Shown in pieces: positions 6,916-63,765 of a stretch of 64,000 nucleotides of DNA. The translations under genes and the position numbers were made by a program. Location: the NCBI GenBank assembly GCA_963747175.1, contig CAVVDW010000021.1:612-64611 (forward strand), given 5' to 3'. Under the pieces are notes generated by a model that was given only the letters and a program-made list of their open reading frames with translations, was not told where the DNA came from and made no database searches. Positions within the stretch are counted from its first letter, which is position 1; each line of letters starts with the position of its first letter. This DNA is from an uncultured Alphaproteobacteria bacterium (lineage in GTDB: Bacteria; Pseudomonadota; Alphaproteobacteria; Rhizobiales; Methyloligellaceae).

Positions 6916-6940
6916 GGAACCTTCCGTCAGACGACAAGTT
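6916..6940 (+). promoter_or_regulatory. EcfG/sigmaT-type promoter candidate
   Basis: GGAAC-N16-AGTT; SD AGGAGG at 6958 and ATG at 6969. Confidence 0.55.
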
Positions 6941-6968
6941 GGCCCCGTATAGCCAACAGGAGGAAATC

Positions 6969-7133
6969 ATGAGGGCCATCGTTGCTGTCCTCTTCGCCCT
7001 TGCTCTCGGGACCGCATTTTCAGCGCCCGGCTTTGCAGCCGACCCGACCCAGGCAAAGACCAAGGTCGAGTGCCAGAGGGCTGGTGGAATGTGGGACGTC
7101 AAGACGAACTCATGCCTTCGTGGCATGGCCTAG
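6969..7133 (+). CDS. 54-aa secreted two-Cys miniprotein
   Basis: AGGAGG SD; signal peptide MRAIVAVLFALALGTAFSAPGFA; mature part with C...GGMWD...C. Confidence 0.75.
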   Translation: MRAIVAVLFALALGTAFSAPGFAADPTQAKTKVECQRAGGMWDVKTNSCLRGMA

Positions 7134-7282: not shown

Positions 7283-7308
7283 GGAACTCAGTGCGGGCGG
7301 CCGACGTT
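7283..7308 (+). promoter_or_regulatory. EcfG/sigmaT-type promoter candidate
   Basis: GGAAC-N17-CGTT. Confidence 0.6.
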
Positions 7309-7314
7309 GAGCGC

Positions 7315-7520
7315 TAGCCCTAGCCAATCCAACCCACCGCTAGGGTATCCTGCAACGGCCCGGACCCATGACCCCGGGCCGTTCCCATGTGGGCAATGCC
7401 ACAGTCAGGCCCTCGCGTGTCGCTACAATATGCACACAGCCCAGCTGCCAGGGTCGTCGAGCAGACCCGAGGCGCGAGTTGTGGGGAAGCCCCGAAGCGA
7501 CACCTCCGGGGCTTCTTCCC
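7315..7520 (+). ncRNA. Candidate structured small RNA
   Basis: Lies between an EcfG-type promoter and a terminator-like hairpin; at least five stems; no convincing ORF. Confidence 0.4.
7486..7520 (+). terminator. Hairpin terminator candidate
   Basis: GAAGCCCCG ... CGGGGCTTC followed by TTCCC. Confidence 0.45.
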
Positions 7521-7531
7521 TGTCGGTGTTG

Positions 7532-7556
7532 GGAACTCACCGCGGGGAAGGCCGTT
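7532..7556 (+). promoter_or_regulatory. EcfG/sigmaT-type promoter candidate, leaderless transcript
   Basis: GGAAC-N16-CGTT, 8 nt before ATG 7565. Confidence 0.6.
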
Positions 7557-7564
7557 CCCTGAAC

Positions 7565-7765
7565 ATGCGTTCCACGCCGCAACAATGCCGAGAACATGCC
7601 GACCACTGTCGCAAGATGGCAGAGGACGCGCCGCCTGCGCTGGCACGTGAGTTTGAGAGCCTAGCCGCGACGTGGTTGCGCTTAGCAGGCGAGCTGGAAC
7701 GCGCAGAGGCGTTCCGCCCGGACGTTCTTCCCAACGTTATCCCGCTGGAGCGAGCCCGACGCTAG
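7565..7765 (+). CDS. Small helical hypothetical protein
   Basis: MRSTPQQCREHADHCRKMAE...FESLAATWLRLAGELE, a pattern common in Hyphomicrobiales small proteins. Confidence 0.7.
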   Translation: MRSTPQQCREHADHCRKMAEDAPPALAREFESLAATWLRLAGELERAEAFRPDVLPNVIPLERARR

Positions 7766-19754: not shown

Positions 19755-19795
19755 CTGAACTGCAGCGCCTGGAATTGCACCCCACCTGTTGTCGC

Positions 19796-19828
19796 AAAAA
19801 AGGAGCCGGTCTCTTGCGAGACCGGCTC
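19796..19828 (-). terminator. Intrinsic terminator
   Basis: 11-bp stem GAGCCGGTCTC/GAGACCGGCTC with A6 on its left (U-tract on the minus strand). Confidence 0.7.
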
Positions 19829-19923
19829 GAGGAAAGGCCCGGTTGGGTCGGGGATGGGTGGGGGATGATCACCGGGCCTTATTGCTGTCCCCAAACGGGG
19901 GATTTAGGGGGTCGAAAAACTCC

Positions 19924-20580
19924 TCAATGGCTGCTCGAGGCCGACACCGCCGTCTGCGGCACGCTGTCGGGCGGCAAGAGAGAAATCCAAACCAGCGGGT
20001 TACGCTCTGACTGCCGCTTGATGTAGGTGTAGGGCGTGTCGGCGAAGCGCAGGATCTCGCGGCGCTTGTTGTCGAGAACGAAGTCGCCCTTGTCGGTGCG
20101 GACAGTCAACACCGCGTGGCCCTCGTTGTTCTCGTCGCGCACGACAGTGATGAGAAGCGTGCTCTCCGGCCAGCCGCGCTCCATCAGGATGCGCTGCTTG
20201 AGCAGGACGTAATCCTCGCAATCGCCCTTGTTGTGGGTCGGATAGGTCCAATACTCGACCTTGCCGTAGAGATCGATGTCGGTCACCGGCTGGATCGAAG
20301 TATTGATTTGGTCATTGACCTGCTCGAGCTCGCGGAACTTTGCGCCCGTGAGCTGAACGCGGTCGGCGAACTTCGCCTCCGGCAAGCAGTCGGCCTGATG
20401 CTCGCGGCAGAAATTCACATAGCCGATAGGTGGCAAGGTATCGCCGAACGACTGCAAGAACGCCACCTTCTGAGGCTCGATCTTTGACGGCGCGACGCTG
20501 ATCGCGTGATCGTTGCTCGCGCCTGACGGCAAAGACGAAATAAACATCAAGAAGGCTGAGCCTAGAACAAACTGTTTCAT
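19924..20580 (-). CDS. Transglutaminase-like cysteine peptidase (BTLCP/LapG family)
   Basis: PPIGY..FC, GDCEDY.LLK, EGHAVL, LDN; signal peptide. Confidence 0.92.
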   Translation of the reverse strand: MKQFVLGSAFLMFISSLPSGASNDHAISVAPSKIEPQKVAFLQSFGDTLPPIGYVNFCREHQADCLPEAKFADRVQLTGAKFRELEQVNDQINTSIQPVTDIDLYGKVEYWTYPTHNKGDCEDYVLLKQRILMERGWPESTLLITVVRDENNEGHAVLTVRTDKGDFVLDNKRREILRFADTPYTYIKRQSERNPLVWISLLPPDSVPQTAVSASSSH

Positions 20581-20855
20581 TGCACCCCCCATTTTATTGG
20601 GATGCACTATGTCAGAAAGATTTTGAGAACCCGATAAAAGAAGGGATCGGTTTAAAGCAGTATTGGTAGGGGTTTTTTAGTGAGAACTACTCAAACCTGA
20701 AGAGGGCAGAGTTAGCGGGATGTTCCGGGAATCGCTAAAATTTTAGCGAACTTAAGAACAAACCGCGATTTTTGGCGGAAATCTGGGATTTATGGGATGG
20801 GCTTGCCTCGTCCGGAAAGCATCGATTCACGATAGAAGTGAGGGCAGCGTGCGCC

Positions 20856-49028: not shown

Positions 49029-49461
49029 TGGCGGTTCCTCATTCTGCTACGAAAGTAGGCTCTGTGAGCGCGGCAACATCGAGGCGAAGCGTGGGAGAGA
49101 AAGTGGAGAGCCCCAGCTCACGGGGGAGAGCCAGGGCTCTCCGGTTCCTAACGGGGGAACCAGCCAGGGTGCCATAGAGTTGCTTCGCCTTGACGCTGTG
49201 ATTAGCAGCGGGTACGTCGCGTAAACAGGCAGACCGCACCTCGGTTTGTGTGGGGGCTCTCGAGCTCATAGAGAAATCCCACCATAGGCCGCGGTCATGG
49301 GCAAAAAAACGGCCCGCAGGAGTACGGGCCGTCAAGGAGGCTTTTTTGATGCAACCTGCAAATTACACCCTCACCACGCCTCACTGCAACCAACCTTGCA
49401 AGAAATGAGAAAGGGACCGAAGCGGGTCCCTTTCTTCGCAATCTCGATCTTAGTCTGCTGA

Positions 49462-51293: not shown

Positions 51294-52526
51294 TTATTCG
51301 GCAGGGACGAGCGGGCGCTGCGCGATCTTGGCGGCTTCGGCCGCATTGCGCGGATTGCGATAGACGAAGGGCGCAGGTGGCTTGGCCGCTTCGGCGCGGG
51401 CAAGCGCCACCATCTCGCCGTGATAGGGCGACAGCGCGCAGGCAGGATCCGTATTGCGAGCGTCGCCGGTGATGGCCATGGCTTGGCAGCGGCAGCCACC
51501 GAAGTCGATTTCCTTGAACGCGCAAGAGCGGCAGGGCTCCTTCATCCACTCGGTGCCGCGGAAGGCGTTGAACGCCTTGCCGTTCAGCCAGATGTCGAGC
51601 AGAGGCCGGTCGAGCACATTGTCGAACTCGAGGCCCTTGATCGTCTCGGCCGCATGGCAGGGGAGCACCTTGCCTGCTGGCGTGATGTTCATGAAGCCTT
51701 TGCCCCATCCGCCCATGCAGGGCTTCGGGCGCTTCGCGTAGTAATCGGGCACCACCATGTCGATGGTCAGCACGCCCTTGAGCCGCTCGCGCTCGCGCTC
51801 GACGAACTCGATCGATTCGAGTGTCTGCTCGTAAGTCGGGATCAGGGCGGCGCGGTTGAGATAAGCCCAGCCGTAATATTGCACATGGGCAACCTCGAGG
51901 CGCTGAGCGCCAAGTTTCACCGCAAGCTCGATATAGCGGGGGACATTGTGGATGTTCTGGCGATGGATGGGGGCGTTGACGGTCAGAGGAAGCCCGAGCT
52001 CGGTCACCCAGCGGGCGACGTCGAGCTTCTTTTGTGTGGCGCCGGGATATGCGCCGATCCGCTCGGCGTTTTCGGCGTCGACGTCCTGGAACGAGATCTG
52101 CACGTGATCGAGGCCGCGCTTGGCGAGGTCCTCGAGGCGTGCGCGGTTGAGCGTAACAGCGGCGGTGATCAGGTTCGAGTAGAGGCCCGCCTCTGACGCG
52201 GCCGAGACGATGTCCTCGAGGTCCTTGCGCGCGGTCGGCTCGCCACCCGAGAGGTGCACCTGCAGGATGCCCATCTCGCCGGCCTGTTTCATCACCGAGA
52301 TCCACATCTCGGTCGAGAGCTCCTTGTTGACGCGCTCGAGCTCGATCGGGTTCGAGCAATAGGAGCATTGCAGCGGGCAGCGATGGGTCAGCTCGGCAAG
52401 AAGGCCGACCGGCGCGCGGGCGCATAGCGCCGCCGTCGCGTTCTTGGTGCCGACCACGCCTTCCGTCGGCTCGTCATCGACGGTCACCGACGGACAATGC
52501 CCGTTGCCCTTAAGCTCTTCGCTCAT
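51294..52526 (-). CDS. pqqE: PqqA peptide cyclase (radical SAM/SPASM)
   Basis: [38 protein letters not shown]. Confidence 0.97.
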
Positions 52527-52825
52527 CCCTTTATGTACCCTTTGTCAGCCAGGCCCTGGAGCAAGTCCAGCACGTCGGCGCGGATCACGTCGGCCGGTGC
52601 CGAATATTCCTTGGCCAGAGCCTCGACGATTTCCTCTACGCTTCTCTTGCCGTCGCAGAGCTTGAGCACCGCAACGGCGGTCTGGTCCGGTGTGAGCACG
52701 CGCTCCGGCGCCAGCAACACCCACCGGTCGCGCCCCGCATCGAAGCGGAGCTTGAGATAGGTGGGCAAATGGGGCCGCGTCTCACGACCGACAACGAGAC
52801 GCTCCGGCAATGCGGCGTCGTTCAT
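52523..52825 (-). CDS. pqqD: PqqA-binding chaperone
   Basis: [14 protein letters not shown]...D..A..VL.LCDG. Confidence 0.95.
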
Positions 52826-53559
52826 CACGCTTTGCCCGGAACGAAGGCGCCGGGCGGAATCATGCCCGGATCGACATAAGCGAGATAAAGCGCGTCGAGC
52901 TGCGCCCACAGCACGTTGCATTTGAATCTGAGCGCATCCAGCGCGCCTTGCTGCGCCTCAGGCGTGCGCGCGTTGCGCTTCACGTATTGCAGGGCGAAAT
53001 CGGCATCATCAGGTGCCTGGGTGAGGCGGCGCTTGAAATACGCCATCACCTCGTCGCTGATGAAGTCGTAGCTCTCGAGCATGCCCGAGATGCGCTCCTT
53101 GTGGATCTTCGGCGCGAACAGCTCGGTGAGCGAGGAGGCGACGGCCTCGACCAGGGTCTTCTCCCGCACGAAATTGACATAGGCCTCGACGGCGAAGCGC
53201 GTCTCGGGCAGCGCGCCCTTCATGGAGATGACGTAGTCGCGGTCGAGCCCGAGCCCGTCGGTCAACACCAGCCAGCGCTCGATGCCGCCTTCTTCCTCGC
53301 CATAGCCGTCATGATCCATGATGCGATGAATCCAGTCGCGGCGGAGCTGGCGGTCATGGCAGCGGCTCATCAGGGCCGCGTCCTTGCGCGGCACGGCGGA
53401 CTGATAGCAATAGCGGTTCAGAGCCCAGGCCTGAACCTGGCCCTTGTTGAGCTTCCCGCCATGCAGCAGCTTATGAAACGGATGCTTGTCGTGATAGCGC
53501 TCGGCGCCAATGGCGCGAAGCTCTTGCTCCAGCTCCTCGGGACTCATGATCTTGGTCAC
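52825..53559 (-). CDS. pqqC: PQQ synthase
   Basis: RYH.KHPFH, WALNRY.YQ..VPRKDA, DHDG, SSLTELFAP.IH..R, FKC..LW..LD. Confidence 0.97.
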   Translation of the reverse strand: MTKIMSPEELEQELRAIGAERYHDKHPFHKLLHGGKLNKGQVQAWALNRYCYQSAVPRKDAALMSRCHDRQLRRDWIHRIMDHDGYGEEEGGIERWLVLTDGLGLDRDYVISMKGALPETRFAVEAYVNFVREKTLVEAVASSLTELFAPKIHKERISGMLESYDFISDEVMAYFKRRLTQAPDDADFALQYVKRNARTPEAQQGALDALRFKCNVLWAQLDALYLAYVDPGMIPPGAFVPGKA

Positions 53560-53813
53560 GGCGTTTACCTCTTGTCCTACCCGAGTGGCGATCAGGCACC
53601 TCCCATGGCGGTTCGTGGATGCGACCGCCTTGATGGGCGTCAACTGCTTGGCAGGCCTCTACAATAACTGAAGACCTTGGCAACGGAAACTTGGGGCGTA
53701 ATCCGACGAATGCAATATAGGGCGGCGCGATGAGAGTTGCATGAGCAGCCCATGAACACTGCCTCTATGCCTCATTAAGAAATTCTGAAGGGGAAGTGAG
53801 CGCCAAGAATCAC

Positions 53814-62257: not shown

Positions 62258-62620
62258 TCAGAAGCAGTTGACCGAGGTCAGCGCGCCACACCCCCTGATG
62301 CTGAGACAGGCCCTGAACTGGCTGCAACAGCGCGTGCCGCAGCCGGCGACGTCGGCCGTGGGATCGAGCGCTGTGGCCGTGCACACGCTGTTACAAGACT
62401 GAAAGTCGTTGTTGCAGACGCGCACGCTCTGGCTGCCCGGGCCGCACACCGAAGGCGGAGGCGCAGTCGACTGCGCCGGCGGGATCGGATTGCCGAACGA
62501 CTGGCCCTGCGTCCCTTGGGTACCTTGTGTTCCTTGCAAGCTCGTTTGCGCGAGCGCACCGGACTGGAGCAACAGCAATAGAAGAAGAGCCGACAATCCC
62601 CGTCTGATCATGTCCCTCAA
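62258..62620 (-). CDS. Secreted Cys-rich protein with (QGT)n linker
   Basis: Signal peptide; 10 Cys in the C-terminal half. Confidence 0.75.
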   Translation of the reverse strand: MRDMIRRGLSALLLLLLLQSGALAQTSLQGTQGTQGTQGQSFGNPIPPAQSTAPPPSVCGPGSQSVRVCNNDFQSCNSVCTATALDPTADVAGCGTRCCSQFRACLSIRGCGALTSVNCF

Positions 62621-62737
62621 ACTCGTAGTTCAAAAACTGCGTCTGAACGCTCGCATGATGCGGATTTCCCCGCGAGCGGCACCTGAGGAGTACAGTATCA
62701 CGGCAATATGGCGCGCCCTAGCGTCGGCCGCCGGCGC

Positions 62738-62843
62738 AAAGAAAAAGCCCGGCGGGATGGAGACCGGGCTTTCTCTTTTCGCTGACCTGAGCGGACCATC
62801 GGCTGGTGCTGGGTGGGAAGGCGGGCGCCGATGGCCAAAGGAC
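62738..62843 (-). ncRNA. Candidate EcfG-dependent small RNA with C-rich loops
   Basis: Upstream GGAAC-N17-AGTT (62875-62850); hairpin GCCATCGGC/GCCGATGGT; terminator AAGCCCGGT/GCCGGGCTT plus U-tract. Confidence 0.55.
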
Positions 62844-62990
62844 TCGTTGAACTCGGCCCCATGCCCGAAAGTTCCCCCTACAGGAATTGGACTCTTAGGC
62901 TCTCGCCGACAGACTTGGGCTCATTGTTGCCGCGATGGAAAAATACTGTCTCGCCGCCCTCGATTCTGAGATCTCCATAGAGCAGGCAAA

Positions 62991-63533
62991 ATGAAATCCT
63001 TAATAGCGCTGTTCCTCATTTCGCTCGCGACGCTCGCCGCGCCGGACATTGCCGCGGCCGCCACGGCGGATGAGATAAACACGTCCGCCAACGCCACTCT
63101 TCACCGGTTCGTCGAGCAAAATACAAGCGCCGAGGAGCTTGGCCGCAAGGCGGCGGGGGCCTTGGTGTTTCCCTCCATCATCAAGGCCGGCTTTGGATTA
63201 GGCGGCGCGTATGGAGAGGGCGTTCTCATCGTCCATGGCAATGCCGCCGGCTACTACAACATCGTGTCGGCCTCATTCGGCTTTCAAATGGGGGTACAAT
63301 CTCAGTCGCTCATCGTCCTGTTCATGACGGAAGAGGCCTTGAACCAATTCGAGCAGTCTTATGGATGGAAGGTCGGCGTCGACGGTTCGATCGTGGTCGT
63401 CACGCTCGGCGCGTCCGGCTCGATCGACACCAACAACCTGACGAGCCCGATCCTCGGCTTCGTCACGGATGAGACGGGGCTGATGTACAGCTTGAGCCTC
63501 GAAGGCTCCAAGATCACGCGCGTCACGCCCTGA
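62991..63533 (+). CDS. YSC84/SYLF lipid-binding domain protein
   Basis: LVFP.IIKAGF..GG.YGEG, S.GFQ.G.Q, GLM..LSLEG.KI. Confidence 0.9.
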   Translation: MKSLIALFLISLATLAAPDIAAAATADEINTSANATLHRFVEQNTSAEELGRKAAGALVFPSIIKAGFGLGGAYGEGVLIVHGNAAGYYNIVSASFGFQMGVQSQSLIVLFMTEEALNQFEQSYGWKVGVDGSIVVVTLGASGSIDTNNLTSPILGFVTDETGLMYSLSLEGSKITRVTP

Positions 63534-63558
63534 GTGCGGAGTGGAAAGGACGCCAAAC

Positions 63559-63765
63559 ATGGATTGGAACCGGGTCGAAGGTAACTGGAAGCAGGCGAAG
63601 GGGAAGGTCAAAGAGAAGTGGGGCAAACTCACGGACGATGACCTAACCACCATCAATGGCCGCCGCGATCAACTCGAAGGAAAGATTTAGGAGCGGTATG
63701 GCTTGGCCAAAGATCAAGTCAAGCGAGACGTAGACGACTGGTACGCCGCTCAAGACTGGTCGTGA
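63559..63765 (+). pseudogene. csbD: CsbD-family stress protein with in-frame TAG at codon 44
   Basis: MDWNRVEGNWKQAKGKVKEKWGKLTDDDL...QLEGKI*ERYG. Confidence 0.85.

Follow-up and report, generated by a model that had tools for sequence, protein, structure and literature searches.

A probable new small-RNA family of uncultured Methyloceanibacter-like soil bacteria, marked by an EcfG-type promoter and two exposed C-rich loops

The window (the whole 64,000-nt stretch of DNA analyzed here) contains, at 62738-62845 on the minus strand, a predicted RNA of ~108 nt with protein-coding genes on both sides. The genes for SYLF/Ysc84 (62991-63533) and CsbD (63541-63690) are encoded on the plus strand, divergently from the RNA; on the other side, a minus-strand gene (62258-62611; hereafter the Cys-rich gene) encodes a 117-aa secreted cysteine-rich protein that has no match in Pfam. 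The 3′ end of the RNA is its U tail, and the Cys-rich gene starts at 62611, 126 nt beyond it; the 5′ end was placed 5 nt past the -10 element of the promoter, at the onset of sequence conservation (GAGUCC...). The spacer on the SYLF side also holds a box, CCATCGCGGCAACAATGAG(C/G)CC (window 62917-62938, read on the minus strand), which lies ~50-70 nt upstream of the SYLF start. This box is kept in nearly all SYLF loci examined (L001, L004, L006-L008, L015, L018-L020, L065, and L069), the spacer around it being otherwise not alignable; it is probably a SYLF promoter or operator and not of the EcfG type.

Upstream of the RNA, and on the same strand, stands an EcfG-type (ECF15-like) promoter: a -35 element, GGAAC (62875-62871), is followed after a 17-nt spacer (62870-62854) by a -10 element, AGTT (62853-62850). 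The GGAAC-N17-AGTT pattern that the first-pass annotation had picked out on the minus strand is thus present, at 62875-62850. GGAAC is the same in each of the seven RNA-carrying lineages, whereas the sequence of the spacer has drifted; as their -10 element, five lineages show CGTT, the window shows AGTT, and L066 shows GGTT. In all seven, the promoter reads GGAAC-N16/17-nGTT and its -10 element ends 4 nt 5′ of the conserved start of the RNA. These intervening four bases (62849-62846) are themselves hardly preserved, with 1/4 identical between the window and L015. A population variant of the window allele carries a 1-nt deletion at 62862, which gives a spacer of N16 instead of N17. The variation at the -10 element has a precedent: the Sphingomonas melonis EcfG motif is GGAAC-N17-20-GTT, and AGTT and GGTT variants occur among EcfG-dependent genes (PMC6599016). 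Within the window, GGAAC-N16/17-AGTT is found four times against 0.37 expected, a count that 0/100 shuffles reach. Because GGAAC and nGTT are held at N16/17 in 7/7 lineages while the spacer has diverged, the promoter reads as a phylogenetic footprint of the EcfG type, and the constant distance between its elements and the conserved body supports an independent, non-coding unit driven by such a promoter, in keeping with the general-stress sRNA that the annotation had proposed. From the consensus alone, we infer that the cognate sigma factor is EcfG and not another ECF sigma factor; a Pfam scan of 20 window ORFs turned up neither a sigma factor nor PhyR, and hence no ecfG-nepR-phyR locus.

How would the transcript fold? 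Starting from the 5′ end (all coordinates of the RNA are on the minus strand), a single-stranded leader, GAGUCCUUU (62845-62837), leads into hairpin 1 (62836-62794), in which GGCCAUCGGC (62836-62827) pairs with GCCGAUGGUC (62803-62794). This hairpin had been described as a 9-bp stem enclosing CCUUCCCACCC; the hairpin and the enclosed sequence are there, but the stem has 10 bp, one of them G-U. Its 23-nt loop, GCCCGCCUUCCCACCCAGCACCA (62826-62804), contains CCUUCCCACCC as a C-rich core (62821-62811), the proposed seed 1. The next segment was originally taken for a single-stranded linker. An A-rich linker is indeed present, namely the A/G-rich AAAAGAGAAA at 62779-62770, but the segment need not be wholly unpaired: a 4-bp CGCU/AGCG hairpin (hairpin 2, 62793-62780, CGCU-CAGGUC-AGCG) can form ahead of it. 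Hairpin 2 is found in four of the seven lineages (it is missing from L066, L072, and L074) and is therefore not essential. The linker AAAAGAGAAA is able to pair with the U tail, lengthening the terminator stem; its length differs among lineages, and the AAG adjoining the terminator stem is invariant. The RNA closes with an intrinsic terminator (62769-62747; GCCCGGU, a 9-nt loop, and GCCGGGC) and the U tail (62746-62738). Here the annotation was accurate: the loop is CUCCAUCCC, the tail is UUUUUCUUU, and the unit ends at 62738. A simple terminator scan missed this terminator because of its 9-base loop. It is this loop that carries CAUCCC (62759-62754), the proposed seed 2. For the 111-nt stretch, the predicted folding energy is -47.2 kcal/mol (z = -4.4), a stability that 0/200 shuffles match.

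The RNA is present in six lineages beyond the window, seven in all, and all of them are metagenomic. These orthologues were reached via exact-protein look-ups of closer homologues of the SYLF and Cys-rich proteins and were scored with R1, one of two covariance models of the RNA (R1 and R2). Model R1 gives 134 bits for L015/16/17, 127 bits for L069/70/71, 83 bits for L065, 48 bits for L074, 45 bits for L072/73, and 41 bits for L066. Nine species-representative loci (L001-L009) have no copy of the RNA ahead of SYLF, which at first suggested that it is not conserved at all, a reading overturned by the closer relatives that carry it. When the window is compared with L015, the RNA body reaches 92.7% identity, ahead of the SYLF coding sequence (89.9%) and the Cys-rich coding sequence (80.5%); identity is only 66% in the spacer upstream of the promoter and 62% in the spacer past the terminator. 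The conserved block therefore runs from the expected transcript start to the U tail, and at the level of sequence comparison this profile shows purifying selection on the RNA. Population SNPs seen in other runs fall into line with the fold: A62832G in hairpin 1 and C62768U in the terminator each convert a Watson-Crick pair into a G-U wobble.

Selection has not kept the RNA everywhere. Two close relatives, L018 and L020, have no RNA gene: a deletion of ~125 nt, located at about 560-690 in L018 and about 1-175 in L020 and corresponding to window 62752-62877, extends from the -35 element into the terminator. In L018, whose Cys-rich gene is 90.6% identical at the DNA level, the promoter and RNA are gone and a remnant, CCAGGTTTCTCTTTTCGCC, preserves the 3′ half of the terminator and the T-run. 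Because L018 and L020 lost it through deletion, the RNA is dispensable in nature. Its distribution is also narrow. An 18-mer scan of a metagenome contig collection returned 44 matches, of which 43 were chance and one was a true copy, identical to the window. The window region itself recurs in near-identical form in >20 soil and rhizosphere metagenome runs, and relatives of the SYLF and Cys-rich genes are labelled as Methyloceanibacter sp. or uncultured Alphaproteobacteria, from soil and sediment metagenomes. In L075-L079, where more distant homologues of the Cys-rich gene are found (69-75% identity), a tRNA-like sequence was seen by eye at the position that the RNA occupies elsewhere.

When every orthologue is folded singly, a shared plan emerges: a short leader, hairpin 1 with its large loop, a variable middle, and the terminator, with total lengths of 88-108 nt. 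The terminator core stem, GCCCGG/CCGGGC, is invariant in 7/7 lineages, and the stem of hairpin 1 is 94% paired over the seven; in a MAFFT alignment of the orthologues, standard pairs fill 95.6% of pair cells. Hairpin 1 shows compensatory change at two positions (A-U to G-C at one; U-A to C-G, twice, at the other). Covariation does not exceed the shuffle control, with 3 double-changed pairs against 1.7 expected and 101/500 shuffles reaching 3, because most alignment columns never vary; support for the structure thus comes mainly from thermodynamics and conservation. The two loops follow different courses. The loop 1 core is C/U-rich and G-poor in every lineage and variable in sequence: CCUCCCCUCCCC in L015 and L069, CCUCCCCACCCC in L065, CUCCUCCCGCCCCCAC in L066, CCCCCCUUCCACCCC in L074, and CCUUCCCCUCAC in L072. 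CAUCCC, on the other hand, is kept in the terminator loop of 7/7 lineages while the adjacent loop bases vary. Both are predicted to be accessible, as would be expected of the two C-rich loops that the annotation had emphasized: over six lineages, the probability of being unpaired is 0.79-1.0 for the loop 1 core and 0.94-1.0 for CAUCCC, and the loops are thus 79-100% unpaired. A terminator-loop motif that never varies is unusual, and suggests a function for the loop.

Which of the neighboring genes, if any, belongs with the RNA? The locus had been introduced as divergent from SYLF-csbD, and this arrangement is correct for the window; as a conserved context, however, the pair fails, since SYLF is the divergent neighbor in just 4/7 lineages and csbD does not adjoin SYLF in L015. 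The only neighbor conserved with the RNA is the Cys-rich gene, which lies downstream on the same strand, 94-138 nt away, in 7/7 lineages. It is this difference (7/7 against 4/7) that keeps alive the main rival to a stand-alone sRNA gene, namely, that the unit serves the Cys-rich gene as its stress-inducible 5′ leader or upstream transcription unit: the EcfG promoter would feed the gene by terminator read-through, and the short RNA would be left over as a by-product or arise by processing of the leader. In four RNA libraries, contigs with the L069-type allele do cross the terminator, as read-through would have it, though they are possibly DNA-derived: they reach from 70 nt upstream of the predicted start to past the terminator and, because they span promoter and terminator alike and could represent DNA or read-through, are uninformative on transcription. 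A leader would also have to contend with a strong terminator, in which the invariant GC-rich stem is followed by a U tail; on inspection of the sequence, no antiterminator pairing was seen, and the loops pair unremarkably with the start region of the Cys-rich gene (ranks 31 and 17 of 51). The gene, moreover, exists without the RNA in L018, L020, L067/68, and L075-79. Between the terminator and the Cys-rich gene lies an element of its own, GCTAGGG-N~15-17-TGnTAnnnT (62692-62722, minus strand), with GCTAGGG and the TG..TA core invariant in eight lineages; it is probably the promoter of the Cys-rich gene (extended -10-like) and, because the RNA-less L018 is among the eight and retains it, the gene seems to be expressed from its own promoter, independently of the RNA. 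On balance, the leader reading appears unlikely. A riboswitch or attenuator was rejected, since inspection showed no antiterminator and a separate conserved element precedes the downstream gene.

Other alternatives concern what the RNA does, or whether it does anything. A 54-codon ORF (62698-62862, minus strand) overlaps the RNA, and some relatives no longer carry the RNA, so one might see here a small protein-coding gene, or a promoter-like motif that lies by chance next to a relic terminator. The ATG of this ORF, however, sits inside the promoter spacer, and the RNA differs in length between lineages by +1, -2, and -14 nt; because these differences are no multiples of three and break every frame, the RNA is non-coding and the small-protein reading falls. 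The conservation profile and the 7/7 promoter footprint are incompatible with chance, and a non-functional or coding locus is hardly credible. A real EcfG-driven RNA could also work without base-pairing to mRNAs, for instance by capturing or merely contacting a protein, or as a decoy for another RNA. Conservation of the terminator stem and CAUCCC loop in sequence, and not through covariation, would suit such a role, and so would the drift of loop 1 among close relatives, a behavior that seeds do not usually show. The target search, too, gave no signal: sites complementary to the loops occur at chance frequency in the 64-kb window, and no neighboring gene stands out when 51 start regions are ranked by predicted duplex. 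The region around the csbD start (GAGUGGAAAGG, 63541-63560, plus strand) ranks 2/51 for loop 1 at -24.2 kcal/mol; csbD was set aside as a target, such sites being at chance frequency and csbD not a conserved neighbor. Cognate pairing between the RNA and its own downstream mRNA was likewise discarded, as it is no better than that of any C-rich loop with a Shine-Dalgarno sequence. The missing signal carries little weight, however, because the search covered 64 kb alone. Exposed C-rich loops are also a recurrent mark of RNAs whose pairing sites are G-rich or Shine-Dalgarno sequences, among them GsrN and cuckoo/ar14 (PMC5869019; PMC4615179), and the RNA contains no GGA-type or other known protein-binding motif. 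A purely non-pairing role is thus quite improbable, and an mRNA-pairing sRNA remains the preferred reading.

Does this sRNA belong to a known family? A search with Infernal against Rfam, which the annotation had recommended, returns no known family: across the whole window, Rfam 15 yields 0 matches at gathering thresholds, and the best weak matches, ar35 (19.7 bits against 45) and Thr_leader (22.8 against 55), are driven by the terminator. The closest parallel lies in architecture and, probably, in mode of action. GsrN of Caulobacter crescentus is a ~100-106-nt, sigmaT/EcfG-dependent sRNA with an intrinsic terminator; it is stabilized by Hfq, is processed to a stable 5′ isoform, and activates katG, and its C-rich 5′ loop pairs with a G-rich leader (PMC5869019). 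The window RNA is built along similar lines: a promoter of the GGAAC-N16-CGTT type directly upstream, a length of ~100 nt, a 5′ hairpin exposing a C-rich loop, another exposed stretch within the 3′ half, and an intrinsic terminator. Unlike GsrN, its terminator loop itself bears an invariant C-rich motif. The two RNAs also differ in that they show no robust sequence homology, having one 14-nt C-rich stretch in common. Aligned to the gsrN sequence from the supplement of PMC5869019, the window RNA reaches a local score of 23 against a shuffle mean of 16 (10/500 shuffles reach it, p ~0.02), and the L066 and L072 orthologues give nothing (p ~0.56). By BLASTn, GsrN homologues are confined to Caulobacteraceae; EcfG-regulated sRNAs are predicted throughout Alphaproteobacteria, where candidates outside that family were predicted by proximity to ecfG-nepR-phyR, and C. 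crescentus gsrN itself is distal to that locus (PMC5869019). The window, for its part, contains no GSR regulator locus among the 20 Pfam-scanned ORFs of its 64 kb. The RNA thus probably resembles GsrN in its predicted workings and, as far as testable, not by descent; because sequence homology is lacking, the resemblance is probably convergent, or else such RNAs turn over fast.

A second comparison is with the cuckoo family (ar14/CcsR/RSs0680). These alphaproteobacterial RNAs, some of them stress-induced, consist of 2-4 adjacent hairpins, each bearing the loop motif CCUCCUCCC and joined by unpaired linkers of <=10 nt; their loops resemble an anti-Shine-Dalgarno sequence, and their stems vary more than the loops (PMC4615179). 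Hairpins with C-rich loops of this anti-Shine-Dalgarno-like kind are also found in the window RNA, but they lack CCUCCUCCC: in the window the loops read CCUUCCCACCC and CUCCAUCCC, and the one near approach is CUCCUCCC, in L066. The spacing differs too, with 24 nt (62793-62770) from hairpin 1 to the terminator stem, 14 of which can form hairpin 2, against a maximum of 10. The Rfam ar14 model (RF02344) has no window match at E up to 10, and the L066 orthologue scores 26.1 bits on it against a gathering score of 58.8. CcsR, moreover, has an RpoHI/II promoter and is co-transcribed with its upstream gene, whereas the window RNA has an EcfG-type promoter of its own. Exposed C-rich hairpin loops are likewise described for AbcR (ar15), Xanthomonas sX13, actinobacterial 6C, and the Staphylococcus UCCC-loop RNAs, and the C-rich loops of such sRNAs pair with G-rich or ribosome-binding sites (PMC4615179). 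These RNAs differ from ours in promoters and host taxa, and no match to their Rfam models was found in the window; the likeness is one of mechanism and probably convergent.

Several other stretches of the window deserve mention. Directly past the stop codon of an ORF at 19924-20607 (minus strand), the element at 19794-19890 on that strand comprises a hairpin of 10 bp, whose C-rich 27-nt loop, GAUCAUCCCCCACCCAUCCCCGACCCA, holds CAUCCC twice, and then a strong terminator. The same element stands behind a coding gene in two Methyloceanibacter-like genomes, at L001 1091-1187 and L004 1129-1225 (both plus strand), and may be a 3′UTR-derived C-rich-loop sRNA. At 49156-49347 (plus strand), GGAACCAGCCAGGGTGCCATAGAGTT, with an N17 spacer and AGTT, is followed by ~165 nt without an obvious ORF; a terminator-like hairpin with a T-run lies near 49300-49347, and the unit is possibly another EcfG-type sRNA. 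Three further GGAAC-N16/17-(A/C)GTT sites cluster within 650 nt on the plus strand (6916-7133, 7283-7390, and 7532-7765) and precede a 54-aa secreted ORF, a hairpin RNA candidate at 7315, and a small helical ORF. The 7315 candidate, which has the loop CAAUCCAACCCACC and lacks a U tail, was tried as a paralogue of the 62738-62845 RNA and rejected at just 11.3 bits with model R2 (E = 0.17), as was a match at 19826-19923 (just 11 bits with R2). The first-pass annotation had connected the 7315 candidate with this RNA through a shared CCCACC; that link does not hold up, given that CCCACC occurs 39 times in the window, about the frequency judged to be due to chance, and that the covariance model does not relate the two. 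Hairpins with C-rich loops are not enriched overall, either: the window has 9, and random sequence gives 9.6. Together, the possibly EcfG-driven or stress-linked C-rich-loop RNAs (62738-62845, 7283-7390, 49156-49347, and 19794-19890) might make up a multi-sRNA, post-transcriptional arm of the general stress response in Hyphomicrobiales, with CAUCCC in a terminator loop as the conserved seed for GGGAUG-type sites and loop 1 evolving fast to retarget among close relatives; such an arm is an unlikely prospect. Elsewhere, ORFs at 51294-53643 (minus strand) with PqqC-family (TENA/THI-4/PQQC) and radical-SAM/SPASM (PqqE-like) domains may represent a pqq cluster.

Taken as a whole, the analysis makes it likely that 62738-62845 holds a true non-coding RNA gene, transcribed on its own from a promoter of the EcfG type. 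That its product is a trans-acting, loop-mediated regulator which pairs with mRNAs in the general stress response is a less firm proposal, and one that we nevertheless lean toward. In the current model, EcfG, the general-stress sigma factor, would transcribe the stand-alone gene from GGAAC-N16/17-nGTT, and the strong intrinsic terminator would end transcription to release a small regulatory RNA of ~108 nt (88-108 nt in relatives). Its two exposed C-rich loops, the variable C/U-rich loop 1 and the terminator loop with its invariant CAUCCC, would then pair in trans with G-rich mRNA stretches, either Shine-Dalgarno regions or 5′ leaders, probably with the assistance of Hfq acting via the U tail and the A-rich linker.

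If this model is true, the RNA would lend another independent case to the view that GsrN-like C-rich-loop sRNAs are a routine component of the alphaproteobacterial general stress response; the finding leaves current understanding unchanged. The loss of the RNA in close relatives, and the fast drift of loop 1 set against an invariant motif in the terminator loop, bear on how sRNA seeds evolve. Judging from its sequence and predicted fold, the RNA very probably represents an sRNA family that is new and previously undescribed, though its kind is known, and that belongs to uncultured soil bacteria resembling Methyloceanibacter. If confirmed, it would provide a sequence-defined, structure-modelled family, with seven lineages, models R1 and R2, and a clear promoter, for uncultured alphaproteobacteria that are widespread in soil.
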